Assembly: GCA_020638555.1 (NCBI GenBank)
Contig: JACKII010000003.1
Span: 112,610-176,609 of the forward strand
Direction: 5' to 3'
Length of the DNA: 64,000 nt
Source of the DNA: Alphaproteobacteria bacterium
GTDB lineage: Bacteria; Pseudomonadota; Alphaproteobacteria; Bin95
In this document: piece by piece, positions 11,959-55,803 of the stretch
How positions within the stretch are numbered: position 1 is the first letter of the stretch
Layout of the letters: every line of letters starts with the position of its first letter
Position numbers and translations under genes: made by a program
The notes under the pieces: generated by a model
The model's database searches: none
What the model was told of the DNA's origin: nothing
Seen by the model: the letters and a program-made list of their open reading frames with translations, nothing else

Positions 11959-12166
11959 CGGTAACTCTTGGCACAAAGGCGCGGCCGGGAGCCAATCTCG
12001 AACTTACCCGAAATCCCCGCGACTAACAATCACTTGGCCGAACTCCGCCTTTAGCCCATGTTTAAGATGTGATGCGTGCGTGGTAGCGTGCCGCTCGGTA
12101 CGGAGTGAAGGGCTCGGAAGATTGCCCCCAAAGGGTCCGGCCGAAAGTTGCAAATGGGAGCGGTCA
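11959..12166. promoter_or_regulatory. divergent intergenic control region between ABC exporter operon and glycosyltransferase operon
   Basis: 208-bp gap between divergently oriented first genes; GGGAG RBS 8 nt before ATG 12167. Confidence 0.3.
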
Positions 12167-39228: not shown

Positions 39229-41476
<2,248 letters not shown>

Positions 41477-41480
<4 letters not shown>

Positions 41481-42775
41481 CCCAACAGACTGCCAGCGGC
41501 CAGACCGGCATGAGCGAGACCGACGCCGACGCACTGCTCGCCGGGATCGGCGCCAGGGCCCGCGCCGCCACGGCCGCACTCGGCAAGGCCAGCGCTGCGG
41601 CCAAGGCTCAAGGCCTGCACGAAGCGGCCGAACGGGTGCGCAGCGCTGGCAACGCCCTGCTCGACGCCAATGCCGGCGACTGCGCCCTGGCCGAGAAGAA
41701 CGGCATTTCTGCCGCCTTCCTCGACCGGCTGCGCCTGACGCCGGACCGGATCGAAGGCATTGCCGGCGGGCTGGACGCCGTCGCGGACCGGCCCGACCCG
41801 GTGGGCATGGTCGACCAGGCCTGGACGCCGGCGAACGGCCTCAATATCAGCCGCGTGCGGGTGCCGCTGGGCGTGATCGGCGTCATTTACGAGAGCCGGC
41901 CGAACGTCACGGCGGACGCCGGCGGCCTCTGCGTCAAGGCCGGCAATGCGGCGGTGCTGCGCGGCGGCTCCGACAGTTTTGCCACCTCCGGCCTGCTGGT
42001 GGATTGCCTTCAGGACGGGTTCGCCGCCGCCGGCCTGCCCCGCGACGCAGTGCAGCGCGTGCCCACCAAGGACCGGGCCGCCGTCGGCGCCATGCTGCGC
42101 GCCCGCGGCCTGATCGACGTGATCGTGCCCCGCGGCGGCGCCAGCCTGACCGAACGCGTGTTCCGCGAGGCGCGCATGCCGGTGATCGGCCATCTGGAAG
42201 GGCTCTGCCACCTTTATATCGACGCCGCGGCCGACCTGGGCATGGCGCGCGCCATCACCGTCAACGCCAAGATGCGCCGCACCGGCATTTGCGGCGCGGC
42301 CGAGACGCTGCTGGTCGACCGGCGTGCGGCCAGCACCCATCTACAACCATTGATTGCCGACCTGCTCGCGGCCGGTTGCGCCGTGCGCGGCGACGAGAGC
42401 GCCCAGGCCGCCGACCCGCGGGTGACGCCGGCGGTGGAAAGCGACTGGCGCACGGAATATCTGGACGCGATCATCGCGGTCCGCATCGTCGACGGCGTCG
42501 ACGGGGCGATGGAGCACATCAACACCTACGGCTCGCACCACACCGATTCGATCGTCACCGGCGACCCGGCCACGGCGGAGCGCTTCCTGGCCGAGGTGGA
42601 CAGCGCCATCGTGCTGCACAACGCCTCGACCCAGTTCGCCGACGGCGGCGAGTTCGGGTTCGGCGCCGAGATCGGCATTTCCACCGACCGCTTCCACGCC
42701 CGCGGCCCGGTCGGCGCCGACCAGCTCACCAGCTACAAATACGTGGTGCGCGGCCACGGCGAAACCCGGCCGTGA
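41477..42775 (+). CDS. proA: gamma-glutamyl phosphate reductase
   Basis: 432 aa aldehyde dehydrogenase-like; ATGA overlap with proB. Confidence 0.95.
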
Positions 42776-42794
42776 AGCCGACCATGAAGAAGGA

Positions 42795-43451
42795 ATGGGG
42801 GTGAGCCTTTCCACCGCCACACCGCCCCTGCTCTATGGCCTGGGCCGCGCCAATGGCGGCCGCATCGGCCTGCTTGGCGGCTCGTTCAACCCGGCGCACG
42901 AGGGGCATTTGCACATTTCGCGCCTGGCGCTGCAATACCTGCGGCTGGACGCGGTCTGGTGGCTGGTCTCGCCGCAGAATCCGCTGAAATCCGCGGCGGA
43001 CATGGCCCCGTTCGCTGCCCGGTTCGCCTCGGCGAAGGCCATGGCCCGGCATCCGCGCATCGCCCCCACCGACCTGGAAACCCGGTTCGGCACACGCTAC
43101 ACCGCCGACACGCTGGCCGCACTTCGCCGGGCCTTTCCGGGCACCCGCTTCGTCTGGCTGATGGGGGCGGACAATCTGATCCAGCTGCCGCGCTGGGCCC
43201 GGTGGCAGACCATCGCCGCGACGGTTCCCATTGCAGTCTGGGGCCGGCCCACCTATTCTATGCGGGCGATGCTAGGCAAAGCCGCACAGCGCTATGCGCG
43301 CAACCGTGTTCCCCTGGAGGCGGCGGGCCAATTGGCCCTGAGTGAGCCGCCTGCCTGGACGTTTTTACCCATCCGGCTGCATTCCGCTTCCGCCACGGCG
43401 CTTCGCCGGGCCGGACGGTCGCCAGCCCTCAGCGGAGGACCCAACCGATAA
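42795..43451 (+). CDS. nadD: nicotinate-nucleotide adenylyltransferase
   Basis: GGSFNPAHEGHL (H/T-x-G-H nucleotidyltransferase motif). Confidence 0.9.
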   Translation: MGVSLSTATPPLLYGLGRANGGRIGLLGGSFNPAHEGHLHISRLALQYLRLDAVWWLVSPQNPLKSAADMAPFAARFASAKAMARHPRIAPTDLETRFGTRYTADTLAALRRAFPGTRFVWLMGADNLIQLPRWARWQTIAATVPIAVWGRPTYSMRAMLGKAAQRYARNRVPLEAAGQLALSEPPAWTFLPIRLHSASATALRRAGRSPALSGGPNR

Positions 43452-43579
43452 TCCCCGACCCCGAACCTCCCAGTCGCCCGACTGCGAGTCCCGCCGTCGA
43501 CTTCCTGCCCGCCCAACGCGCGCGGAAGCCCAAGGCAAAGCAAGCGGCCGCCGACCGGCTGCGCGACCTGATCCTGCAC

Positions 43580-43900
43580 GTGCTGGACGAGCACAAGGCA
43601 GAGGACGTCGTCACCGTCGACCTGGCCGGCAAGAGCCCGATGGCCGACTATATGATCGTCGCCAACGGCCGCTCCCAACGCCAGGTCCAGGCCCTGGCCG
43701 ACTATGTCGCCCGTGCGGTGAAGGAAAGCGCCGGCGCGCCCAAGGTGGAAGGCCTCGCCCAGGGCGACTGGGTGCTGATCGACACCGGCGACGTGCTCGT
43801 GCACCTGTTCCGCCCGGAAGTGCGCGAGTTCTACAACATCGAAGCCATGTGGACCGCATCGCCGGCCGGCGCCCGGACAGCAGGCTCCTCCGTCTCCTGA
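43580..43900 (+). CDS. rsfS: ribosomal silencing factor RsfS (Iojap)
   Basis: GTG 43580; ...LILHVLDEHKAEDVVTVDLAGKSPMADYMIVANGRSQRQVQALAD; open in-frame upstream to stop at about 43343 without a canonical start, so true N-terminus may be longer. Confidence 0.85.
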   Translation: MLDEHKAEDVVTVDLAGKSPMADYMIVANGRSQRQVQALADYVARAVKESAGAPKVEGLAQGDWVLIDTGDVLVHLFRPEVREFYNIEAMWTASPAGARTAGSSVS

Positions 43901-43943
43901 TCGCGAGCCGCCGGGGCCCGCGCACCCGAAAAGGGCCGGTGCC

Positions 43944-44405
43944 ATGCGCATCGTCATCGCCGCTGTCGGGCGGATGCGTGCCGGCCCGGCGCGCGGGCTG
44001 CTCGATACCTATCGCAACCGCATGACCACCCTGCCGCTCGACGTGCGCGAGGTGCAGGCGCGCGCCAGCCTGCCCGTGCCGAAAAGGATGGTCGCAGAGG
44101 CGGAATTGCTTTTGCAAGCGCTGCCCGAATCTGGTCCGATCATCGCGATGGACGAACGTGGCGACGATCTTTCGAGCCAAGCCCTTGCCGATCTGCTGGG
44201 CGGATGGCGGGACCAGGGCCATGCGGCCTGCGGCTTCGCCATCGGCGGAGCCGACGGCCTGGACGAAAGCGTGCGCCGGCGGGCGTCCAAAACCCTCCGC
44301 TTCGGCCGGGCGACCTGGCCGCACATGATGGTTCGAGCGATGTTGGCCGAGCAACTCTATCGCGCCCAGCAGATCCTGGCGGGCCACCCCTATCACCGGG
44401 ATTGA
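43944..44405 (+). CDS. rlmH: 23S rRNA (pseudouridine1915-N3)-methyltransferase
   Basis: 153 aa SPOUT family; MRIVIAAVGRMR..., position after rsfS as is typical. Confidence 0.9.
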   Translation: MRIVIAAVGRMRAGPARGLLDTYRNRMTTLPLDVREVQARASLPVPKRMVAEAELLLQALPESGPIIAMDERGDDLSSQALADLLGGWRDQGHAACGFAIGGADGLDESVRRRASKTLRFGRATWPHMMVRAMLAEQLYRAQQILAGHPYHRD

Positions 44406-44411
44406 GGCCGC

Positions 44412-45632
44412 ATGGCGCCCCTTCTTCGTCTGGCCGCCCTGGCATTGGCCCTGGCGCTGGCCGTCGGCCCCGCCCGCGCGGCCGCCCCCGACCCGGAACG
44501 CGCCGCGGCCGAGCGCCATCTGGAGCAGGCGCAGCAGCAATTGCGCGCCGCCGAAGCGGCCAAGACGGCCTCGGCCGCCGCCGCCGATGCCATGCGCGCC
44601 GAAGTGGCGGCCTTGCAGACCGCCGTTCAGTCCGCCGCCGACGATTTGCGCAGCCATGAGCAGGTGATCCGGCAGCGCGCCGCCGAACTGCACGCCCTGC
44701 AACGCAAGCAGGCGGATACGCTCGCCGCCTGGCACGCCCGCCGGGCCGAGGTCGGCACGGCGATCTCCGCCCTCACCCGCCTTGCCACCGTGCCGCCCGC
44801 CGCCACCCTGTTGCAGGGCACCGATACCACCAGCCGCCTGCGCAGCGCCTTCGTCCTGCGCGCCCTGGTTCCGCGCCTGCAACACCGCGCCGATCGGGTG
44901 CGCCAGGACCTGGCCGATATCCGCCGGGCGGCCAAAGACGTGGCCGCCGCCAGGATCGACCTGGTGCAGGCCAAGGCCGGGCTGGAACGCCGTCTCGCCG
45001 AGGTGCAGAAACTGGTGCGGCGCAAGAACGCCGTGCTGGCGGTGCGGCAGAACGAGGCCGACCTCGCCATCGCCGCCGCCCACCGCCAGGCCAAGAGCGC
45101 CGACGACGTGCGCGAACTGATCGCCCGCCTCGACGACGCCCGCAGCGCCCGCAACGCCGCCATGGCGGCCGAGCGAGCGCGCCGCGCCATCATCGCCCAA
45201 CGGGCCGGCACCGCCCCGCCGCCGGACCCGGGCCCGCCGCTGCGTCTGGTCGGTCTCGAATCGCGACGCGGCGGCCTGTTGCTGCCGGTCACCGGCTCCG
45301 TCACCCGGCGCTTTGGCGAGGGCAAGGACGCCTTCAGCGAGGGTATCAGCGTATCCGCCACGCCCGACGCCCCGGTCCTGGCCCCGGCAGACGGCCGCAT
45401 TCGTTATGCTGGCGAGTTCCAGAAGTATGGCCTAGTGTTGATCATCGATCACGGCGGCGGCTTCCATTCGGTGTTGACCGGGTTTTCCAGGCTGAACGTC
45501 GCGACCGATCAATGGGTTTTGGCAGGCGAACCGGTCGGGCGCGTGGCAGCGCATGGTTCGCTCTATATCGAAATCCGGCGGAACGGCCGGCCGGTCGATC
45601 CGTTGCAATGGTTTACCGCTGGGCGCAGCTAG
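44412..45632 (+). CDS. M23/LytM-family peptidase with N-terminal coiled coil (EnvC-like murein hydrolase activator)
   Basis: Signal peptide, long Ala/Gln/Arg-rich coiled coil, C-terminal LytM domain (GLVLIIDHGGGFHSVLTG). Confidence 0.8.
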   Translation: MAPLLRLAALALALALAVGPARAAAPDPERAAAERHLEQAQQQLRAAEAAKTASAAAADAMRAEVAALQTAVQSAADDLRSHEQVIRQRAAELHALQRKQADTLAAWHARRAEVGTAISALTRLATVPPAATLLQGTDTTSRLRSAFVLRALVPRLQHRADRVRQDLADIRRAAKDVAAARIDLVQAKAGLERRLAEVQKLVRRKNAVLAVRQNEADLAIAAAHRQAKSADDVRELIARLDDARSARNAAMAAERARRAIIAQRAGTAPPPDPGPPLRLVGLESRRGGLLLPVTGSVTRRFGEGKDAFSEGISVSATPDAPVLAPADGRIRYAGEFQKYGLVLIIDHGGGFHSVLTGFSRLNVATDQWVLAGEPVGRVAAHGSLYIEIRRNGRPVDPLQWFTAGRS

Positions 45633-45655
45633 ACGCGCGTTAGGAGTTGGAACAC

Positions 45656-47056
45656 ATGCGGCGCAACGCCTGCTGCAAGCTCGGTCTGATCGGGGCCGGT
45701 TTTGCCCTTGCTCTCGTCACCACCCCCCTTCTCGACCCACCGCCGGCGCAGGCGGCTTCCAACTCGTCCGAAACCTACCGGGCGCTGAACCTGTTCGGGG
45801 ATGTGTTCGAGCGGGTGCGCTCGGAATATGTCGAGGAAGTCTCCGACGAAAAGCTGGTCGAAGCCGCCATCAACGGCATGTTGTCCTCGCTGGACCCGCA
45901 TTCCAGCTATCTGAATCCGAAGAATTTCAAGGATATGCAGGTTCAGACCAAGGGCGAGTTCGGCGGGCTCGGCATCGAGGTCACCATGGAGAACGGCCTG
46001 GTCAAGGTGGTCTCCCCCATCGACGACACGCCCGCCTACCGCGCGGGCATCCAGTCCGGCGACCTGGTCACCCATCTGGATGGCGAGCCGGTGCTGGGCC
46101 TGACCCTGGAGCAGGCCGTCGAGAAAATGCGCGGCAAGCCGGACACCGACATCAAGCTGACCGTGCGGCGCGGCGACCAACCGCCCTTCGAAGTCTCCAT
46201 CACCCGCGCCGTGATCAAGATCCAGTCCGTGCGCTCCCGGCTGGAAGGCGATATCGGCTATGTGCGCATCACCAGCTTCAGCCAGCAGACCGAAAGCGGC
46301 CTGACGAAGGCGGTCAAGAAGCTGGAGAAAGAGGCGCCGAACGGCAAGCTGATCGGCCTGGTGCTGGACCTGCGCAACAATCCGGGCGGCCTGCTCGACC
46401 AGGCCATAGCCGTCTCCGACGCCTTCCTGGAGCGGGGTGAGATCGTCTCGACCCGCGGCCGCGACAAGGACAACGCGCAGCGCTTCAACGCCAGCCCGGG
46501 CGACATCACCGACAACCTGCCCATGGTCGTGCTGATCAACGGCGGCTCGGCCTCCGCCTCGGAGATTGTCGCCGGCGCGTTGCAGGATCACCGTCGCGCG
46601 CTGCTCATGGGCACCACCTCCTTCGGCAAGGGCTCGGTCCAGACCATCCAGCCCATCCCCGGCCATGGCGCGATCCGCCTGACCACCGCACGCTATTACA
46701 CCCCGTCCGGCCGCTCGATCCAGGCGACCGGCATCGTACCGGATATCGAGGTCCAGCCGGCCAAGGTCGAGGCCATCGACGTCTCCGCCCGCCGGCGCGA
46801 GGCCGACCTGCCGGGCGCGCTCGCCAATCCCAACGGCACGTCGGACGGCACGCCGGCGAAGAAGGACGCGGCCCCCGCGGCCAAGCCGAAGCCGGACAGC
46901 ATGGACAAGGACGAAGGCGCACCCGAGGCACCGGAGGACAAGACCGGCGACAAGGCAGAGGCCAAGCCGGCAACGGCGCCGGTCGACTACCAGTTGTCGC
47001 GGGCCATCGACCTGCTGCGCGGCCTCGCCCTCTTCAACAGCCGCAAGGACGGGTAA
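45656..47056 (+). CDS. ctpA: carboxy-terminal processing protease (S41)
   Basis: ATG 45656 within track ORF 45647..47056 (TTG); PDZ plus S41 catalytic domain (GGSASASEIVAGAL, TTSFGKGSVQ). Confidence 0.9.
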   Translation: MRRNACCKLGLIGAGFALALVTTPLLDPPPAQAASNSSETYRALNLFGDVFERVRSEYVEEVSDEKLVEAAINGMLSSLDPHSSYLNPKNFKDMQVQTKGEFGGLGIEVTMENGLVKVVSPIDDTPAYRAGIQSGDLVTHLDGEPVLGLTLEQAVEKMRGKPDTDIKLTVRRGDQPPFEVSITRAVIKIQSVRSRLEGDIGYVRITSFSQQTESGLTKAVKKLEKEAPNGKLIGLVLDLRNNPGGLLDQAIAVSDAFLERGEIVSTRGRDKDNAQRFNASPGDITDNLPMVVLINGGSASASEIVAGALQDHRRALLMGTTSFGKGSVQTIQPIPGHGAIRLTTARYYTPSGRSIQATGIVPDIEVQPAKVEAIDVSARRREADLPGALANPNGTSDGTPAKKDAAPAAKPKPDSMDKDEGAPEAPEDKTGDKAEAKPATAPVDYQLSRAIDLLRGLALFNSRKDG

Positions 47057-47550
47057 TGGCCGCGGCGCGCAACCCGGAGGGCATGCCTTACCGTCCCTGC
47101 GTCGGCATCGCGCTGGCCAATGCCGAGGGACTGCTGTTCCTCGGCCGGCGGGTCGGCACCGAGGACAGTTGGCAGATGCCGCAGGGCGGCATCGACCCCG
47201 GCGAGTCCCCCCGGGCGGCCGCCATGCGCGAACTGCGCGAGGAAACCGGCATTGCCCAGGCCGATCTGGTGTTCGAAAGTGCGCACTGGTACCGCTATGA
47301 CCTGCCGCCTGCGGTGGCCGGTCGGGCGTTGCGCGGCCGCTATCGCGGCCAGGAGCAACGCTGGTTCCTGCTGCGCTTCACCGGCCGGGAACGCGAGATC
47401 GACCTGCGCACCCATCACCAGGAATTCTCCGCCTGGCGCTGGGCCGAGCCGGACGAGGTGCTGGCCTGCATCGTCGATTTCAAGCGCCCGGTCTACGAAC
47501 AGGTGCTGGCCGAGTTCGCCTCGCACCTGGCTGCCCTCCGCAGCCGCTGA
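47056..47550 (+). CDS. rppH: RNA pyrophosphohydrolase (NUDIX)
   Basis: Nudix box GGIDPGESPRAAAMRELREETGI. Confidence 0.9.
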   Translation: MAAARNPEGMPYRPCVGIALANAEGLLFLGRRVGTEDSWQMPQGGIDPGESPRAAAMRELREETGIAQADLVFESAHWYRYDLPPAVAGRALRGRYRGQEQRWFLLRFTGREREIDLRTHHQEFSAWRWAEPDEVLACIVDFKRPVYEQVLAEFASHLAALRSR

Positions 47551-47586
47551 CCGCCCCTTTCCGGACCCAAGCCGAAGCGCCCCGCG

Positions 47587-48783
47587 ATGACCGACTCCGC
47601 CCCCCTCCCCCTTGCCGGCATCCGTGTGCTGGAATTCTGCCACACCATCATGGGGCCGACCGCAGGCGTGATTCTGGCCGACCTCGGCGCCGACGTCATC
47701 AAGGTCGAGCCGGCGCCCGCCGGCGACAAGACCCGCCGCCTGCCGGGGTTCGCCGCCGGGTTCTTCGTCAGTTTCAACCGCAACAAGCGCGGCATCGCCC
47801 TCGACCTGAAGAGCGAGGCCGGCCGGGCCGTCGCCCACAGGCTGATCGGCCAGGCCGACATGCTGTTCGAGAATTACGGCCCCGGCACGATGGAGCGGCT
47901 CGGCTGCGGCTATGACCAGGTCAAGCACCTGAACGAGCGCCTGATCTATGGCGCGCTGAAGGGCTTTCTCTCCGGCCCCTACGAGCACCGGCCGGCGCTG
48001 GACGAGGTGGTGCAGTTCATGGGCGGCCTCGCCTACATGACCGGCCCGCCCGGCCGCCCGCTGCGCGCCGGCGCCAGCGTGATCGACATGATGGGCGGCA
48101 CCATGGCCGTGGTCGCGGCCCTCGCCGCGCTGGAGGAGCGCAAGCGCACCGGCAAGGGCCAGTATCTGAAAAGCGCGCTGTTCGAGAGCACGGCCTGGCT
48201 CATGACCCAGCACATGGCCGGCCAGGCGATCACCGGCCGACCGGTGCCGCCAATGCCGGCGCGCGAGGGCGCCTGGGCGGTCTACGAACCGTTCGAGACC
48301 GCCGACGGCGACCAGATTTTCATCGGCCTCACCTCCGACAATCACTGGCGCCGCTTCTGCGAGGAATTCGGCCGCCACGACCTGCTGGCCGACGCGCGCT
48401 ATGCCTCGAACGAGGCCCGCGTCGCCGAGCGCCCGACCCTGCTGCCGCTGGTGGCCGATTTGGTGAAGCGGCATACCACTGCCGAGATCGTCGCCATTGC
48501 CGAGCGCATCGGCATCCCGTTCGCCCCGGTCGCCACCGCTGCCGACCTGTTCGACGATCCGCAACTGGCCGCGGCCGGCGGTGGCCTGCTTCCGATCCAA
48601 CTGCCGAACGGCGACTGGACCAAACTGCCCCGCCTGCCGATCGAGATGGGCGATCACGATCTGGGCCTGCACTGCCAGGCGCCGCAAGTCGGCGAACACA
48701 CGGCCGAGGTGATGCGGGAAGCCGGCTACAGCGAGGCCGAGATCGCCGCGCTGGCCGAGCAGAAGGCCGTGGTGCTGGGGTAA
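47587..48783 (+). CDS. CaiB/BaiF family III CoA-transferase
   Basis: 398 aa; family III CoA-transferase N-terminus (LAGIRVLEFCHTIMGPTAGVILADLGADVIKVE) and catalytic Asp region. Confidence 0.85.
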   Translation: MTDSAPLPLAGIRVLEFCHTIMGPTAGVILADLGADVIKVEPAPAGDKTRRLPGFAAGFFVSFNRNKRGIALDLKSEAGRAVAHRLIGQADMLFENYGPGTMERLGCGYDQVKHLNERLIYGALKGFLSGPYEHRPALDEVVQFMGGLAYMTGPPGRPLRAGASVIDMMGGTMAVVAALAALEERKRTGKGQYLKSALFESTAWLMTQHMAGQAITGRPVPPMPAREGAWAVYEPFETADGDQIFIGLTSDNHWRRFCEEFGRHDLLADARYASNEARVAERPTLLPLVADLVKRHTTAEIVAIAERIGIPFAPVATAADLFDDPQLAAAGGGLLPIQLPNGDWTKLPRLPIEMGDHDLGLHCQAPQVGEHTAEVMREAGYSEAEIAALAEQKAVVLG

Positions 48784-48879
48784 GGCGGCGGCCGACACCG
48801 GCCCCGGACGGCGGCTCCGTCCGCTTCGGGGAACGCCAATGGCCCGCGGGGGATCGCCGACCGAGACGCCTCCGAAACC

Positions 48880-48980
48880 CGCAATTCCGTCATGGCGAGG
48901 CGCGGAGCGACGAAGCCATCCAGGGGGTTTTCAACATGTCAAACCCTGGATTGCTTCGCCTTCGGCTCGCAATGACGGTT
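48880..48980. repeat. palindromic intergenic repeat, family B copy 2
   Basis: ccgtcatggcgagg...gcgacgaagccatccaggg...ccctggattgcttcgcc...ctcgcaatgacgg; imperfect palindrome between convergent genes, related to 3405-3515. Confidence 0.55.
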
Positions 48981-49120
48981 TCCGGAGGTATCCAGGAGAT
49001 TGCCTCCCCGTGGCGGGCGGTTGCGAGAAGCGCTGAGGCATGGCCTACCGCCTGCGCGGGAGAGGGGAGGGAGTGGAGACCATCCGGATTCGCCGCCACG
49101 CCTCCCCAAAAAAACGGCCT

Positions 49121-50710
49121 TCAAACGAAATCCCATTCCGGCCTTGTCATGCCGACAAAGGTCTCGCCGATCCCGCCGGGGGTGTTTCGGGCCAGCAGGT
49201 CGCGCAGCGAGACCGTGTTCTGGATCGCATCCCACCCCGGCGCGCTGAACGTCTCCGGCTTGAACACGTGCTCCGAGAGCAGCGGGTTGGTCAGCGCCTG
49301 GCTGAAGGCGTCGATGGCGACGAAGCGCAGAATCAGCGGCGGCAGCGAGGAATTGACCGTCCGGTCCTCCGCGAACAGGCCGACGAAAAACTCGATCCGG
49401 TCGACACTGCCATAGGCCCGGCGCAGCATCTCGGCCGCTTGCGGATCGCTGGTCACGTCCTCGAAACGCTGCGGCCGGTCGAGGCCCACATAGGCGCGGT
49501 AGTCGCTGTAACTGGCCAGCTGGCAGGCCCGCCCCTGGCGGATCGAGCGTTCCTCCACATGCAACAGCCGCTTGGTGGTGTTGAACAGGCCGAGCCGCGT
49601 CGCCGGCGTGGCGCTGATATCCCGGAACGCCGCCAGCAGGCCGCCGCGCAACAGCACGCCGTGGTCGAGGAAGGTGCGCGCCACCGGCACCGGCTCGCCA
49701 CCGCCCCAGGGGATCGCGTCCGGGATCAGGGCGTGCCAGCGATAGAGCAGGCTGAACTCGGTCGTGATCCAGTTCGGCTTGTTCCAGGCCGCCCGCCAGG
49801 CCGCGCGCGGGTCGGCGCGGATGGAAAAATTCTTCGGCGAGATATGGTTGATGTATTCCTCGACCACGATCTTGATGAAGAGGACGATCACCACATTGCG
49901 CGCCGTCTCGAACACGCGGGTATCGTCCCAATCCGGGTGGCGCTGCGCGATCTCGCCGGCCAGCCGGTTGTGCTCGCGCAGGAACAGCGTGTTCAGCATC
50001 GCCACCTGCGGCACCGAGTTGGCGCGGTCGCCGCCGAACGCGAACAGGGTGGCGCGCTTCTCTGCCGCCAGGCCGTCACCGTCGCCCAGCACCGGGTCCA
50101 GCACCGCGAATTGCGGGTCGAGTTCGCCGTCGCGGTAGAGAAACGGCGCATACTCCTCGCCGTCGATCGTCTGCGACTTCAGGCGGCCGCGTTCGCCCGG
50201 CGTCTCGCTGTTCTGCCGCAGCGCCGCGGTTTGCGCCGGGGTGCGGCCATAGAGCGGGCAGAGGTCGATCTGGTGGTTGGAGGTGGTGCGCCGGAACAAC
50301 TCGTCGTCCGAAAGACCCGACAAGCCGATACGGTCGGCCAGCGGCTCGGTCAGGGTGCGGATGAAGCCGTCGGTCAGGTATTGCGCGAAGGCCGGGAACA
50401 GACAGGTGGACTTGCCGTCCGGGTCCGCCGGCCGATCCTCCGGCCGGGCGAACAGCCGGGTCAGCGTCTCGACCGGCGGCAGGTCGGCGACCGGCTTGGG
50501 CGGCAGGTGGCGGCCGCTCCAACTCCGGTCCGACAGCGCGGTCCAACTGGTATAGGGCTGGGCCGTGCTCCAGGGATGCGGCCGGGTGCGGGCCCGCCCC
50601 ACCGCCCGGTTGATCAGGATGCGGTTGGCGTGCACGGCCAGGACGGGCACGGCTTCGACCACGTCGAACAGGCGACGCTCCAACCAACGCAGAGCGGATG
50701 AACTGGCCAT
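49121..50710 (-). CDS. animal-type heme peroxidase family protein, cyclooxygenase/alpha-dioxygenase-like fatty acid oxygenase
   Basis: ATG 50710 (MASSSALRWL) with AAGGA RBS, within track ORF 49121..50836; stretches resembling COX/PIOX: FAQYLTDGFIRT (distal His region), TLFLREHNRLAGEIAQRHPDWDDTRVFETARNVVIVLFIKIVVEEYINHIS (compare COX TIWLREHNRVCDLL...IKIVIEEYVQ), LLYRWHALIPD (Tyr/proximal His). Confidence 0.8.
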   Translation of the reverse strand: MASSSALRWLERRLFDVVEAVPVLAVHANRILINRAVGRARTRPHPWSTAQPYTSWTALSDRSWSGRHLPPKPVADLPPVETLTRLFARPEDRPADPDGKSTCLFPAFAQYLTDGFIRTLTEPLADRIGLSGLSDDELFRRTTSNHQIDLCPLYGRTPAQTAALRQNSETPGERGRLKSQTIDGEEYAPFLYRDGELDPQFAVLDPVLGDGDGLAAEKRATLFAFGGDRANSVPQVAMLNTLFLREHNRLAGEIAQRHPDWDDTRVFETARNVVIVLFIKIVVEEYINHISPKNFSIRADPRAAWRAAWNKPNWITTEFSLLYRWHALIPDAIPWGGGEPVPVARTFLDHGVLLRGGLLAAFRDISATPATRLGLFNTTKRLLHVEERSIRQGRACQLASYSDYRAYVGLDRPQRFEDVTSDPQAAEMLRRAYGSVDRIEFFVGLFAEDRTVNSSLPPLILRFVAIDAFSQALTNPLLSEHVFKPETFSAPGWDAIQNTVSLRDLLARNTPGGIGETFVGMTRPEWDFV

Positions 50711-50896
50711 GGTGGGATCGTCCTTGCTGTCGCCGCGTGTCATTGCCGTCCTGGTAACACGATTCAACCGCAACGGCTGTGATTTCGGCCACTTCCCACA
50801 CCCGGCACAGGGCACCGGCATTGTTCCAAAGACCAATGCGTGTAGACTTTTCCGCCAACGCCATCCGTATCTTCCCCATCAAGGAACCGCCTCCCC

Positions 50897-52087
50897 ATGT
50901 CCTCCCCTTCCGCGCCGCCGCTCGACGGCTTGCTGGTGCTCGACTTCACCCGGGTGATTGCCGGCCCCTATCTGACCCAGATGCTGGGCGATCTGGGCGC
51001 CGAGATTGTCAAGATCGAGGACCCGCGCGGCGGCGACGACTTCCGCCACTACCGGCCCGCCGGCTGGCAGGGCGATGCCCCCTATTTCCTGGGCCTGAAC
51101 CGCAACAAGAAAAGCGTGCTGGTCGACCTCGCCAGCGAGGCCGGGCGCCGGGCCTGCCGCGAACTGGCGGCCAAGGCCGATATCCTGGTGGAGAATTTCC
51201 GCCCCGACGTCATGGCGAAATACGGCCTCGCCTATGACGATCTCAAGGAGCTGAACCCGCGCCTGGTCTACTGTTCCATTTCCGGCTACGGCCATTCCTC
51301 CCCCTTCCGCCTGGTGGCCGGCTACGACCCGATTGCCCAGGCGGAAACCGGCCTGATGTACCTGACCGGGCCGGAGGAGATCGAGCCGCAAAAGGCCGGC
51401 GGCTCCGTCGCGGACACCTTCACCAGCCTGCATGCGGGCATGGGGTTGATGGCGGCGCTGGAGGCGCGCCACCGCACCGGCCGGGGCCAGCACGTGGACG
51501 TGTCGCTGTTCGATTCCATGTTCGCCGCCACCGGCTATGCCGCCATGTATCCGCTGATGCTGGGCGAGGACATGCCGCGCCTCGGCAACGGTTCGCTGGT
51601 GCTGACCCCGCTCGGCACCTATGACTGCGCCGACGGCCAGATCATGATCGTGGTCGGCAACGACCGGCAATACGCCCGCTTCTGCGAGGCGCTGGAGCGG
51701 CCGGACATGGCGGACGACCCGCGCTATGCCAGCATCGCCTCGCGCCTGGAACACCGCGCGGCGCTGGAGGCCGAAGTGGTGGCGGCCCTCAAGACCCGCC
51801 CGCGCGCCGAATGGGTCGACCGGCTGCGCGCCGCCGGCGTGCCCGCCGGCGCGGTGCGTACGCCGAAAGAGGCCGTCGCCTCACCGGAGGCCACCGGCCG
51901 CGACATGCTGCAACCGGCCCGCTATGCGGAGACGACCCAGGACGTGGTCTGGTCGCCGCTCCGCCTCTCCGACACGCCGCCGCGCAAGCCGGGCCGGGTG
52001 CCGCTGCACGGCGAGCACACCGACGAGGTGCTGGCCGAGATGCTGGGCTACTCCGCCACCCAGATCGCCGCAGTGAAAGGCGGCTAG
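50897..52087 (+). CDS. CaiB/BaiF family III CoA-transferase (paralog)
   Basis: 396 aa; LDGLLVLDFTRVIAGPYLTQMLGDLGAEIVKIE N-terminus. Confidence 0.85.
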   Translation: MSSPSAPPLDGLLVLDFTRVIAGPYLTQMLGDLGAEIVKIEDPRGGDDFRHYRPAGWQGDAPYFLGLNRNKKSVLVDLASEAGRRACRELAAKADILVENFRPDVMAKYGLAYDDLKELNPRLVYCSISGYGHSSPFRLVAGYDPIAQAETGLMYLTGPEEIEPQKAGGSVADTFTSLHAGMGLMAALEARHRTGRGQHVDVSLFDSMFAATGYAAMYPLMLGEDMPRLGNGSLVLTPLGTYDCADGQIMIVVGNDRQYARFCEALERPDMADDPRYASIASRLEHRAALEAEVVAALKTRPRAEWVDRLRAAGVPAGAVRTPKEAVASPEATGRDMLQPARYAETTQDVVWSPLRLSDTPPRKPGRVPLHGEHTDEVLAEMLGYSATQIAAVKGG

Positions 52088-52248
52088 GCAAGGAGGAAAG
52101 GGCCGGCACCGCCCCTCCTGCCCCCGGTCGCGCCACGCCCGTTCATGCTTGGCGCAACCGGGGGGCCGTGTGCGCTGTTGTCAGACGGGAACCATTGGCG
52201 ATACACTCGGTCCATGGTTGAATTGTGCCACGGCGCGGGGGCGAGCGA

Positions 52249-52773
52249 ATGGCAGATGCGGGCATTCCGGGGCAAGAGCCGAACCAACAAGCAACCGAAG
52301 AACCTGTCCAGCGGCATCCACTTTGGCGCTGGCTTCGCGGTTTCACCGAGCATGTGCTGCTGACGCCCTGGTCGCTGGTTCTGGTGATCTGGGCGTCTTG
52401 CCTGGGGAGCGGCATCGGCACTGTGGATGCGGATTGGTCCACCGCCGCCACCCTCATCCAGGGTCGCCATGTGTTCACCAACCTGGACTGGGATTGGCCT
52501 TCAGCTACGAGCGCTTTTTGGCGCCATACCGGCGGATTCCTCATCCTGTTCATCGGCTTTACGGCGATTAGCGCAGTATTTTATTGCGCATTTCTAAGAA
52601 TTACAAAGAACTCGCAGCGTCCGATTTGGATCATAATCCAACTCTCCTGGCTATGGGTCTTTACCAATATTCGGGTTCGCTGCGATTTTGACCTGCACGG
52701 AGACGCAAAGGCTTGGGAGAAGGCCGCAAACAACCCTGCCGATGATGCGACCCTAGAGCGGTTTCGCTTCTGA
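52249..52773 (+). CDS. hypothetical membrane protein
   Basis: ATG 52249 within track ORF 52225..52773; about 4 hydrophobic helices; 3' half visibly lower in GC than surroundings. Confidence 0.4.
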   Translation: MADAGIPGQEPNQQATEEPVQRHPLWRWLRGFTEHVLLTPWSLVLVIWASCLGSGIGTVDADWSTAATLIQGRHVFTNLDWDWPSATSAFWRHTGGFLILFIGFTAISAVFYCAFLRITKNSQRPIWIIIQLSWLWVFTNIRVRCDFDLHGDAKAWEKAANNPADDATLERFRF

Positions 52774-52814
52774 AAGAGTCGTTGGGGGATTCCCGTGGGA
52801 CCGAATTTCTGATT

Positions 52815-53835
52815 CAGAGTAAGGGCTGGTGAGGGAGGCCAGCCGCGATGGCGACAGCTCTTTCCGTTGATCTTCGTTCCCGTGTGATTGCTGCCGTTGA
52901 TGACGGCATGAGCCGTCGTCGGGCCGCGACGCGGTTTGGTGTCAGCTACTCTTCTGCGATCCGCTGGGTTCGGCAGGCGCGGGAGACGGGCAATCTCGCG
53001 CCAAAGCCGCAAGGCGGTGCACGGCGGGAGAGCATCATCGACCGGCATGCGGCTCTGGTCATGGGCTGGATCGATGCCGAGCCGGACCTGACGCTCCCGG
53101 AGATCGCGATGCGGTTGGACGATGCGGTCGGCTACCGCCCGCCACCGAGTGTGGTGCACGCTTTCTTCAAGCGCCACGGCGTGACGCGCAAAAAAAGACG
53201 GCGCATGCGGCCGAGCAAGACCGGCCGGACGTAGCGCAGCGACGGCACGCCTGGTTCGACGCCCAGCCGGACCTCGATCCGGAGCGTCTGGTCTTCATCG
53301 ACGAGAGTGGAACCTCGACCAAGATGGCGCGGATGTATGGCCGTGCGCGCAAGGGCGAGCGCTGCCGGGCGCCGGTTCCGCACGGGCATTGGAAGACAAC
53401 GACGTTCGTCGGCGGCCTGACGCTTGCGGGCGTGGTCGCGCCGATGACGCTCGACGGTGCCATGAGCGGAGCGGCTTTCCTCGCCTATGTCAGCCAAGTC
53501 CTGGCGCCGACGCTGCGCCGCGGCGATGTCGTGGTGATGGACAACCTGCCGGCCCACAAATCCATCGCCGTCCGAGAGACCATCGAGGCTGCCGGCGCCG
53601 TCCTGCTGTTCCTTCCGCCCTACAGCCCCGACTTCAATCCGATCGAGCTTGCCTTTGCCAAGATCAAGGCGCTGCTCAAAAAGGCCGCCGCCCGCACACT
53701 TCCCGCACTCTGGGACGCCATCCGCGACGCCATCGACGCCGTCACTCCGAACGACGCCCGCAGCTTCTTCACCGCATGCGGTTACGAACCAGAATGAAAC
53801 GATTCCGCTCTAGCCCGTTTCTACTGGTTTCCGCT
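52815..53835 (+). mobile_element. IS630-family insertion sequence (boundaries approximate)
   Basis: Contains orfA/orfB transposase with A7 slippery site; weak imperfect terminal inverted repeats (CAGAGTAAGGGCT ... AGCCCGTTTCTACTG); target TA duplication not clearly seen. Confidence 0.65.
52848..53797 (+). CDS. IS630-family transposase OrfAB (programmed -1 frameshift at A7, 53190-53196)
   Basis: OrfA (track 52848..53234) has HTH N-terminus; -1 reading of the A7 run joins to the DDE domain (track ORF 53324..53797: [22 protein letters not shown]). Confidence 0.75.
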
Positions 53836-53938
53836 TTATGGCGGCATCGCCATTTGGCTGGGAGGGCTGGTCACCGTCAGCGCGCTCTGCGTCGATGGAA
53901 TTTTCAACATCCGCTCGCTGCCCATCCACGAAACCAGC

Positions 53939-55120
53939 TTGCGACTGGTAACGACGATTGTCATTTACACCACGATATTATTGGTGATTTCCCTTTTATT
54001 CATAGCGAATTTGCGCGCCACACTCTGCAAAGATAAGGAAAAAAACGACGAAAAAGAAAAATATAAGAAATTAAGATTGACAATTATCCGCAATATGTGG
54101 TCAACCGATAAAATAAACACCTCCTTCTTGTTAAGATATCTTTATGATATACTTAATACCAATAAAACTAAACAAGATATAAATTTTAAATACCTTATTT
54201 TATCTTCAATATTAATCAATATAGTAAAAATTATTCTCTTCACAATGACCATTGAACTGGTTTTCCAGACCTTCGCGATCGACCGCCTGTACGAACTGAC
54301 TTACGGCCTGAACCCCAACGAAAATTTCCGTGGCTTGGTGCTGATGCTGGTGATCATTGTTGTGTTCACCAACAACATGCCGTTGCTGTTTTCGCTGGCC
54401 TGGACCGTGAATGTTGTCGCGCCCATTCTCATCAATCTCGGCTACGACCCCGTTCTCTCCGTCAGCGCCGCAGCCCTGTTTTGCGGCGCCAATTTCGCGA
54501 CACCCACCGGTTCCGAAGTGGTCGCGATGTTGGATCGACGACTGGACTCAAAAACAGTCCGGAAAATCATTGCCGACTTCTACAATGAAATCAAAAATCA
54601 TCTCGGCATAGGATCGTTTGGGTTAATAAAATCGACCCTCGGATTTTTTGCCTTCTTGATATGGCATTATTTTTGCTATTGGAAACTGCATACGCGCTAT
54701 GTCTGGACATATTTTGCGCTGATCCTGATCCCGTTTGCGATGCCCCCCCGGGATTGGGCCCCCTTGGCCTGGGATGGACGGTTCGGGAACATATGGCCAT
54801 TTCACCTGCAAGTCTTGCTTGGCATGGTGTTGATTCTGATCGCCATGAAATACTTCCGCACGGGCCCCTTCTTTCCCGGCCGGCCCGTCTGGCAGATGGT
54901 GCGGCTTTGCCTGATGCTCTCGGGCTCGGCGTTACTCTTGGACCAAACCCACGTGTTCCGACTCAGCCAGCATTTCTTGCTGACCGCCGGCGTCGTGTTG
55001 GCGGTTTTGCCCTTCCTGGTCTGGTGGTTTCTCAGCAAAACGACCGATTACGGTCGTCAGAACACCAAACGAACGGCGCCCGCCGCCCCACCCAAGCCCT
55101 TGCCAACGCCGCCGATATGA
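53939..55120 (+). CDS. hypothetical polytopic membrane protein, compositionally chimeric (possible ion-transporter-superfamily remnant)
   Basis: TTG 53939 (first ATG at codon 53); frame is open back to the IS630 transposase stop codon. A very AT-rich segment of about 250 nt (KDKEKNDEKEKYKK...) is embedded in otherwise GC-rich coding sequence. It has multiple TM helices and a motif (GANFATPTGSEV) reminiscent of IT-superfamily hairpin loops. Confidence 0.5.
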   Translation: MRLVTTIVIYTTILLVISLLFIANLRATLCKDKEKNDEKEKYKKLRLTIIRNMWSTDKINTSFLLRYLYDILNTNKTKQDINFKYLILSSILINIVKIILFTMTIELVFQTFAIDRLYELTYGLNPNENFRGLVLMLVIIVVFTNNMPLLFSLAWTVNVVAPILINLGYDPVLSVSAAALFCGANFATPTGSEVVAMLDRRLDSKTVRKIIADFYNEIKNHLGIGSFGLIKSTLGFFAFLIWHYFCYWKLHTRYVWTYFALILIPFAMPPRDWAPLAWDGRFGNIWPFHLQVLLGMVLILIAMKYFRTGPFFPGRPVWQMVRLCLMLSGSALLLDQTHVFRLSQHFLLTAGVVLAVLPFLVWWFLSKTTDYGRQNTKRTAPAAPPKPLPTPPI

Positions 55121-55503
55121 CGGCATGGTACGCGCCCCTTTGGTCCGGATCGAGCCCCATGCCGCCGAAACACAACCCGCTGAAACTGAACGCCTTGCAG
55201 CTGAAGACTCTGACCGTGTTGCAGCAGCTGGCGCGCTTCCCGCAATACAGCAACCGCGACGCCGAAACGGGCGAGGCGGTGATCATGCGCTTCCCGCATG
55301 CCCATGGCGATCATTTCCACTGCGGCGATGCGGTCGTGCTGAGCCGCGATGCCACCGGCCTGCAGAACGAAAAGGTCTGGCGCGCGCTGGAGCGCAAGGG
55401 GCTGGCCCGCCCCGTCTCCGCCACCGCGCTCGCGCTGTCGGCGGCAGGCGAGGCCTACGACACCGGCCTTTCCGACCGGATTCTGCACCGCGCCGACCAC
55501 TGA
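55117..55503 (+). CDS. hypothetical His-rich small protein
   Basis: ATG 55117 overlapping previous stop (ATGA), in frame with track ORF 54661..55503; HAHGDHFHCGD motif suggests metal binding. Confidence 0.5.
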   Translation: MTAWYAPLWSGSSPMPPKHNPLKLNALQLKTLTVLQQLARFPQYSNRDAETGEAVIMRFPHAHGDHFHCGDAVVLSRDATGLQNEKVWRALERKGLARPVSATALALSAAGEAYDTGLSDRILHRADH

Positions 55504-55713
55504 TCCCGACGATCCAGCGTCCGGACCGGCGCGCCCCGGCCTGAAGACCGCAGGCGCCGGAGACGCCAATGTTTCCCGGCCGCGCCGGAGGCGTAGGGCC
55601 GGGACCGGTGTCCTCCTTCGAACACCGTCCCTGCCCGTGTTCGCAGGCCCCGGCCGGCCCCGGATCGGCGCTCCGCACCCTCCGGGGAACAAGAGCGGTG
55701 TGATCGGCCCGTC

Positions 55714-55803
55714 GGCGTCTTCCCCGGCGGGGATCAGCCCGCCGGCGTCGGCCCAGGCGGGGGTCAGCCCGCCACCGTCTTCCCCGGCGGGGATCAGCCC
55801 GCC
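55714..55803 (-). terminator. array of three GC-rich hairpins at typA 3' end
   Basis: Three tandem units each with 6-bp stem ggcggg-(g/a)(a/g)tcag-cccgcc; typA stop codon lies in the last unit. Confidence 0.35.

Follow-up and report, generated by a model that had tools for sequence, protein, structure and literature searches.

The segment at positions 52100-55510 of a 64,000-nt stretch of DNA from an uncultured alphaproteobacterium (NCBI GenBank assembly GCA_020638555.1, contig JACKII010000003.1, positions 112,610 to 176,609 of the forward strand; hereafter "the window") very probably holds a single, compositionally foreign gene of 604 codons for a lineage-restricted polytopic inner-membrane protein, split by an insertion sequence (IS) of the IS630 family and followed by an independent, native gene for a 114-aa protein. 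An earlier note on this DNA had described the segment as a mosaic islet of three hypothetical genes and an IS, partly decayed and horizontally acquired, in which an uncharacterized membrane-effector system could hide.

One gene split by an insertion sequence

Two membrane-protein open reading frames (ORFs) are annotated around the IS. The upstream 174-aa product, "ORF A," consists of 169 codons of the gene plus 5 IS-encoded codons and ends at 52773; the identical product is called in five other assemblies. The downstream 393-aa product, "ORF C," begins at a TTG codon at 53939. When positions 52756-53812 are deleted, the codon CTA at 52753-52755 is fused to GCC at 53813, and the fused frame is uninterrupted over 604 codons from an ATG at 52249, or over 612 codons from an alternative GTG start at 52225. 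The insertion site restored in this way reads CCCTAGCCC and contains 5'-CTAG-3', and the reconstructed junction sequence of the empty site is GATGATGCGACCCTAGCCCGTTTCTACTGG. From the in-frame fusion and the restored CTAG site, it is concluded that the two ORFs are the halves of one gene (Table 1). Thus, the "hypothetical membrane protein" and the "chimeric membrane ORF" of the earlier note, which were counted there as two of three hypothetical genes, are parts of one IS-interrupted gene.

The downstream ORF lies in the same frame as the second ORF of the transposase and, as had been noticed before, is open back to the transposase stop codon, from 53795-53797 to 55120. This is because the true frame of the gene runs upstream across the insertion point, and just five IS-derived codons of that frame lie between the transposase stop and the insertion point. 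The IS sits after residue 169 (codon 169/170), in a loop between helices as judged by hydropathy and a low-confidence structure model.

The 1.06-kb IS630-family element thus inserted into the TA of a 5'-CTAG-3' at codon 169/170 with duplication of the TA, leaving an N-terminal stub of 174 aa and a C-terminal ORF without a start. The membrane gene is inactivated and probably now a pseudogene in this population. The insertion is common to the population variants, and three contigs (L099, L102, and L103) cover the junction between IS and gene.

Table 1. Features of the segment, in window coordinates
Feature	Position	Strand	Remarks
Membrane gene, 5' part (codons 1-169)	52249-52755	+	joins 53813-55120 in frame when the IS and one TA are removed; GC content at third codon positions 0.63
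IS630-family insertion sequence with flanking CTAG tetranucleotides	52753-53813	+	inverted repeats; the 1061-bp span recurs elsewhere
Transposase ORF1, helix-turn-helix (HTH) DNA-binding part	52848-53234	+	HTH_23, HTH_28, and HTH_Tnp_IS630 above cut-offs
Transposase ORF2, DDE catalytic part	53195-53797	+	-1 frame; DDE_3; first ATG at 53324
Membrane gene, 3' part (codons 170-604 and stop)	53813-55120	+	in-frame junction; at least 12 hydrophobic helices
Extreme AT-rich stretch (GC 0.23-0.30)	53990-54262	+	encodes the end of a transmembrane helix, a hydrophilic loop, and the start of the next transmembrane helix
GANFATPTGSEV motif (residues 394-405)	54485-54520	+	hairpin-like resemblance, sub-threshold
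Native conserved 114-aa gene ("His-rich protein")	55159-55503	+	invariant motif and C-terminal D-H; outside the foreign segment

The IS630-family element

The IS proper covers 52756-53810 (1055 bp) and is bordered by a TA duplication at 52754-52755 and 53811-53812. Its terminal inverted repeats are 18 nt long and 83% complementary (52753-52770 and 53796-53813), with each arm within a CTAG. The second transposase ORF matches PF13358 DDE_3 with an E of 1.6e-28 (99.8 bits, cut-off 28.6) and the first matches PF01710 HTH_Tnp_IS630 with 26 bits (cut-off 21.3), which bears out the earlier assignment to the IS630 family. The other marks of the family are also found: inverted repeats with a TA/CTAG target, and a transposase that, with its DDE_3 and HTH parts, spans nearly the whole element, whose 1055 bp fall within the ~1.0-1.4 kb usual for the family. 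According to the passage in PMC6811581 that cites Tenzen and Ohtsubo (1991), a 5'-CTAG-3' target with TA duplication is documented for IS630.

A slippery A7G run, CGC-AAAAAAA-G, is located at 53190-53197. The -1 frame is open over 53180-53797 and, ahead of the first ATG in ORF2, encodes LVFIDESG, containing the FIDES aspartate. Among annotated elements, the closest relative is an IS630-family element on plasmid p7 of Azospirillum argentinense (NZ_CP032328.1; 73% DNA identity over 95% of the length). This relative has the same GGAAAAAAAGAC motif, and its RefSeq coding sequence, at 950 nt, is not divisible by 3 and therefore requires a -1 shift. Frameshifting or transcriptional realignment has been described in the IS630 family (PMC5009743). 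The transposase of the window element is predicted to be made by a -1 shift at A7G, either ribosomal or transcriptional, which would fuse the HTH ORF to the DDE ORF. Because the same -1 arrangement is present in the Azospirillum relative and frameshifting is described in the family, the two-ORF layout is regarded as normal and not as decay. The description of the segment as partly decayed is therefore apt for the inactivated membrane gene and not for the IS, which looks intact and functional from its sequence.

Related elements annotated as IS630 family are held in 479 plasmid records, while no copy with more than 90% identity is present in the plasmid collection. In metagenomes of the same series as the window's locus, the exact 1061 bp from CTAG to CTAG is found again, 99.9-100% identical, in three other flanking contexts (L097, L098/L100, and L101), and these three insertion sites also show CTAG at both borders. 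The near-identical copies in different flanks indicate that the element is multi-copy and recently active.

Composition and predicted topology

GC content was profiled in 200-nt windows across the segment, in a finer profile at 50-nt steps, and per kilobase over all 64 kb. In 200-nt windows, GC is 0.66-0.78 on either side of the segment, with a background of ~0.68-0.70. From levels of ~0.68-0.72, it drops at 52500-52800 to 0.48-0.53 and at 54000-54300 to 0.285-0.295, and a third dip at 54500-54700 reaches 0.435. The two drops reported earlier, at 52500-52800 and about 54000-54250, are thus borne out, and the composition is not uniform. The minimum at 50-nt steps, 0.23 at 54051, is the lowest in the 64 kb, and the kilobase 54001-55000 has the lowest GC (0.47) of the 64 kilobases, the runner-up having 0.564. 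GC at third codon positions (GC3) is 0.63-0.64 in both halves of the membrane gene, 0.74-0.81 in the IS, and 0.89-0.91 in the flanking host genes. Along the membrane gene it ranges from 0.26 to 0.84, and at the GC minimum the values for the first, second, and third codon positions are 0.18/0.20/0.26, i.e., all three positions are alike AT-rich. Elsewhere in the window, GC falls below 0.50 solely at 11051-11350 (0.44-0.48). This place belongs to a minus-strand ORF (9334-11976) for an ABC-transporter-like protein of 880 aa, within the part for its N-terminal membrane domain.

The reconstructed protein has ~12-14 transmembrane helices according to Kyte-Doolittle hydropathy and the helices of the low-confidence model. 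The AT-rich peptide KDKEKNDEKEKYKKLRL...NTNKTKQDINFKY pointed out earlier is indeed encoded in frame, and the loop derived from the AT-rich stretch comprises ~65 residues (roughly residues 240-300) rich in Lys, Asn, Asp, and Glu. A second GC dip encodes KIIADFYNEIKNH and its surroundings. In the AT-rich stretch, the coding frame contains 0 stop codons, four of the other five frames contain 7-10 each, and the fifth, an antisense frame, contains 1. When the stretch is shuffled, just 0.055% of the shuffles stay open in the coding frame (p ~5e-4). Being stop-free far beyond chance, this frame argues that selection acts on the stretch as coding sequence, or did so until recently. No tandem repeats were found within it, and an Rfam scan gave a chance-level match only; a terminator scan stayed below expectation, and promoter-like matches, 4 against 1.2 expected, were uninformative.

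Relatives and genomic context of the membrane gene

An exhaustive phmmer/HMMER search with the C-terminal 435 residues against 1.84 billion protein representatives gave only a fragment of the protein itself and one relative, P0122. P0122 is an ORF of 200 aa that is 36% identical over the last ~120 residues (E 2.5e-15), and it is found at the end of a contig (JAWLBX010000043.1) in the sister metagenome-assembled genome (MAG) GCA_041687435.1. There, it lies 34 bp from an ortholog of the window's CoA-transferase (87% aa identity), in a locus syntenic with window 39991-52087, and its 5' part is also AT-rich (GC 0.29-0.30). The N-terminal 174 aa used as a query returned only itself. A word-index search with the full 604 aa gave no match among the 8000 candidates listed, a weak null since the protein's own fragments were missed too. 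No relatives were found in species-representative genomes, in two JGI metagenome scans (one with alignment), in IMG/VR, or by tblastn in phages and plasmids, and neither a significant family match in Pfam, NCBIfam, and PADLOC nor a match in a PDB sequence search was obtained.

The gene is absent at the orthologous CoA-transferase locus in six relatives (L012-L017). In its place, two of them (L012 and L017) have a small convergent gene for ~110-123 aa, and another (L015) has a gene for an RTX-like repeat protein. The absence in six relatives and their differing gene content indicate that the spot is variable and that the membrane gene is confined to two sister MAGs. In five of the seven orthologous CoA-transferase loci (L011-L015), the contig stops within 0.1-1.3 kb on the downstream side of the CoA-transferase, and in two of these, L011 and L015, it stops in AT-rich sequence. 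The spot beside the CoA-transferase looks both variable and hard to assemble. The foreign, horizontally acquired look noticed in the earlier note fits both the low GC3 of the gene against that of its host neighbors and the absence of the block from the six relatives; the gene was probably horizontally acquired, or is turning over fast, at this variable spot. There is no tRNA near the locus, and no direct or inverted repeats bounding the membrane gene were found. Without an integrase, a tRNA, or a flanking repeat, the insert is taken to be a single gene and not an island.

The independent 114-aa gene

The small gene downstream had been described as encoding a 129-aa His-rich protein whose start overlaps the stop of the membrane ORF. 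An ATGA at 55117-55120 does provide such an overlap, but 824 homologs (E < 0.01) are nearly all 114 aa long and start with MPPK, and this conserved start places the beginning of the gene at 55159, 38 nt past the stop at 55120. The residues H49-G-x-H52-F-H54-C-G-D57 and a C-terminal D-H are invariant. Nor does the idea that the gene is coupled to the membrane gene hold. Its GC3 of 0.86 is host-like, and elsewhere it follows an FMO-like gene, or a DHDPS gene with rodA after it, and never has a membrane-protein gene as a partner; in the genome of P0122 it lies on a different contig in a different context. The 114-aa gene is thus an independent, native gene for a small protein, neither a partner of the membrane gene nor a part of the islet, and the apparent operon of the two is coincidental.

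The predicted fold is winged-helix-like and confident, with the topology of an HTH and a beta-hairpin wing, so that the product would be an independent small winged-helix protein of a housekeeping type. It has no Pfam or NCBIfam match, and its Foldseek matches have E-values of 0.1 or worse. A relation to metallo-beta-lactamases was considered because of the HxHxDH motif of these enzymes. The protein of the window has HAHGDH at this place, but the family consensus is xPHGNHFHCGD, without conservation of the first His; moreover, matches to hydrolases of the metallo-beta-lactamase type are non-significant (E 0.11-0.25), and the predicted fold is the winged-helix-like one. This alphaproteobacterial family of more than 800 members (homologs P0001-P0120 among them) could be one of small metal- or redox-responsive DNA-binding proteins. 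In one metagenomic relative (L007, 6591-7499), a block with a phage-type integrase and small ORFs lies directly downstream of the 114-aa homolog and replaces the rodA-mrdA-mreBCD cluster of sibling contigs; this may be an integration site.

Alternative explanations

A misjoined assembly, in which the AT-rich stretch or the whole block of a low-GC organism was placed in a high-GC contig, had been a worry of the earlier note and would account for the abrupt GC change. Contigs of the NCBI MAGs do break at the IS, one (L091) matching window 42249-52829 and the other (L002) matching 52753-55691, and beyond 55691 on the right L002 departs from the window. These contigs break at the IS because it is multi-copy. 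Furthermore, the IS, the AT-rich stretch, the GC-rich sequence on both sides of it, and sequence beyond are covered at 99.7-100% identity by four contigs (L002, L003, L099, and L103) from different samples and assemblers; in two of them, L002 and L003, 100% identity extends from the IS through the AT-rich stretch and the 114-aa gene. A contig from another sample (L094) spans 52082-53902 and hence the left junction, running from the 5' part of the gene through the complete IS into the beginning of the 3' part. The reading frame is also unbroken through the GC transition, and the homolog in a related genome includes an AT-rich part as well. A chimera is therefore scarcely credible. The original picture of a decayed mosaic islet, made of separate genes for a membrane protein, a chimeric ORF, and a coupled His-rich protein around the IS and perhaps forming an effector system, is very unlikely as well. 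The low and patchy GC, the ATGA overlap, and the lack of a known family for any of the three ORFs would agree with it, but the two membrane ORFs, separated by a canonical IS630 insertion, form a single frame when joined, and the 114-aa gene is host-like, starts downstream of the overlap, and has no membrane partner in the hundreds of genomes that carry it, including that of P0122. As for the effector system, PADLOC gave 0 matches for the membrane protein, the 114-aa protein, and P0122, and no gene pairing is conserved across genomes of the kind by which an anti-phage defence or membrane-effector system would be recognized.

More serious is the possibility that the membrane gene is itself a mosaic, in which an older, partly ameliorated gene with a GC-richer, conserved C-terminal module gained its AT-rich segment or segments either through in-frame insertion or from a low-GC allele through recombination, so that the gene would not come from one donor. 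This is a tentative account that we do not prefer. The swing of GC3 along the gene and its minimum, where the three codon positions are unlike those of normal coding DNA, speak for it; conservation with P0122 is limited to the C-terminal ~120 residues, where GC is also at its highest; and three of the four single-nucleotide polymorphisms of the variant L099 fall in the AT-rich stretch. Against it, there is no donor sequence, flanking repeat, or mobile-element signature at the borders of the stretch, and one partial homolog cannot tell insertion from differential constraint. The preferred reading, a single foreign gene split by the IS beside an unrelated neighbor, also has points that weigh against it. 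An IS-free allele was not found in the assemblies examined, so the pre-insertion gene is a reconstruction, and the patchy GC3 is unlike what is expected for uniform amelioration of one foreign gene. P0122 is inverted, being convergent with the CoA-transferase while the window gene is co-directional with it, which a simple vertical history leaves unexplained. Just upstream of P0122, at the contig end, stops occur in all three frames; P0122 is therefore a short gene or a remnant, and the ancestral gene was possibly shorter, or decayed there too. For the 114-aa gene, the ATG overlapping the stop at 55117 and a similar N-terminal extension in one homolog (P0008) make some coupling conceivable.

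As to what the protein did before its disruption, a divergent permease is the only lead, and a weak one. The earlier note had likened the GANFATPTGSEV motif to permeases of the ion-transporter (IT) superfamily. The motif is present, but the likeness is sub-threshold: the segment gives top or near-top matches to two independent models of the superfamily, Pfam DcuC (PF03606; E 0.05-0.55, 9-12.6 bits, cut-off 23.1) and NCBIfam Dcu (PRK09412; E 0.6, 8.9 bits, cut-off 369), all far under the curated cut-offs. Size and helix count would fit a very divergent secondary transporter like DcuC, DcuA/B, or ArsB-like permeases. However, neither a significant profile match nor two homologous repeats with a re-entrant hairpin motif, the marks of the superfamily, were found in the protein: no second copy of the GANFATPTGSEV motif or internal repeat was detected, and the local alignment of the N-half against the C-half scored 33 against a shuffle mean of 37.4, giving no internal duplication. 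The PDB sequence search adds no match, and the structure model of the reconstructed protein, made without an alignment, has a predicted local distance difference test (pLDDT) score of only 43, too low to judge the fold by. Membership in the IT superfamily is therefore doubtful. Slightly more doubtful still is a bolder proposal, that the membrane gene is the first known member of an undescribed, fast-evolving polytopic family at a variable CoA-transferase hotspot in one alphaproteobacterial lineage, whose AT-rich stop-free segments, seen in both copies, would be functional, e.g., as hypervariable exposed loops or as nucleation sites of xenogeneic silencing, and not debris of transfer, while the 114-aa family of more than 800 members would, separately, be an undescribed small metal- or redox-sensing DNA-binding protein.

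Neighboring sequence

Of the flanks named in the earlier note, the CoA-transferase (PF02515) and typA are both present in the window, whereas L002 has a different right-hand neighbor: it is identical to the window over 52753-55691 and diverges at 55691-55694 into a gene for an AMP-binding ligase, not typA. The break adjoins 3.4 copies of a 30-bp tandem repeat (55702-55803), with which typA overlaps at its 3' end. The right-hand junction reflects either a strain polymorphism or a misjoin in one assembly. The GC-rich intergenic segment that follows the 114-aa gene at 55570-55693 (~124 nt) has a 72-75% similar copy at 9272-9395 of L002, in both orientations, and a short piece of it also matches window 48798-48834. 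It may be a palindromic element resembling repetitive extragenic palindromes (REP) or miniature inverted-repeat transposable elements (MITE).

On the left side, a haem-peroxidase gene of ~530-570 aa is located on the minus strand at 49121-50836, between two CoA-transferase paralogs (PF03098 An_peroxidase in the annotation of L091). The two CoA-transferases are direct neighbors in the sister MAG (L010/L011), with ~95 nt between them, so that the haem-peroxidase gene is an insertion or loss difference between the two. Its GC3 is 0.89, host-like.

Comparison with known systems

The window element shares with IS630 of Shigella sonnei and with the Azospirillum p7 element the length of ~1.06 kb, the short inverted repeats, the transposase with HTH and DDE_3 parts, and the insertion in the TA of 5'-CTAG-3' with TA duplication; the -1 shift at an A-run would be shared as well, as read from the sequences. 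It is distinct from both of these elements. The locus offers a clean, datable case of an active IS630-family element striking its CTAG target in an uncultured alphaproteobacterium.

With permeases of the IT superfamily (DcuC PF03606 and DcuA/B), the membrane protein has in common its polytopic nature, a similar size, and one hairpin-like motif, G-A-N-x-x-T-x-x-G-S; it differs in having no significant match, no second motif, and no detectable internal repeat. The 114-aa protein resembles winged-helix domains such as the C-terminal domain of CRP/FNR and MarR, but it stands alone without a sensor domain, has no significant sequence similarity to them, and carries an invariant HGxHFHCGD insert not found in CRP/FNR or MarR. 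The orphan membrane gene offers a modest lead, as does the uncharacterized 114-aa winged-helix family; neither opens a long-standing question.

The nearest parallel for the locus as a whole is the class of AT-rich ORFans inactivated by IS elements in GC-rich genomes, with which it shares a low GC3, restriction to two MAGs, a position at a synteny break, and the IS insertion. It differs from them in having no integrase, tRNA, or flanking repeat and in a composition that is strongly patchy inside one gene. For public databases, this means that the 174-aa, 393-aa, and 291-aa products in MAG annotations are fragments of one IS-disrupted gene. On the whole, the membrane gene is a fairly ordinary foreign ORFan that has been knocked out by a mobile element, beside a conserved neighbor that is there by coincidence.

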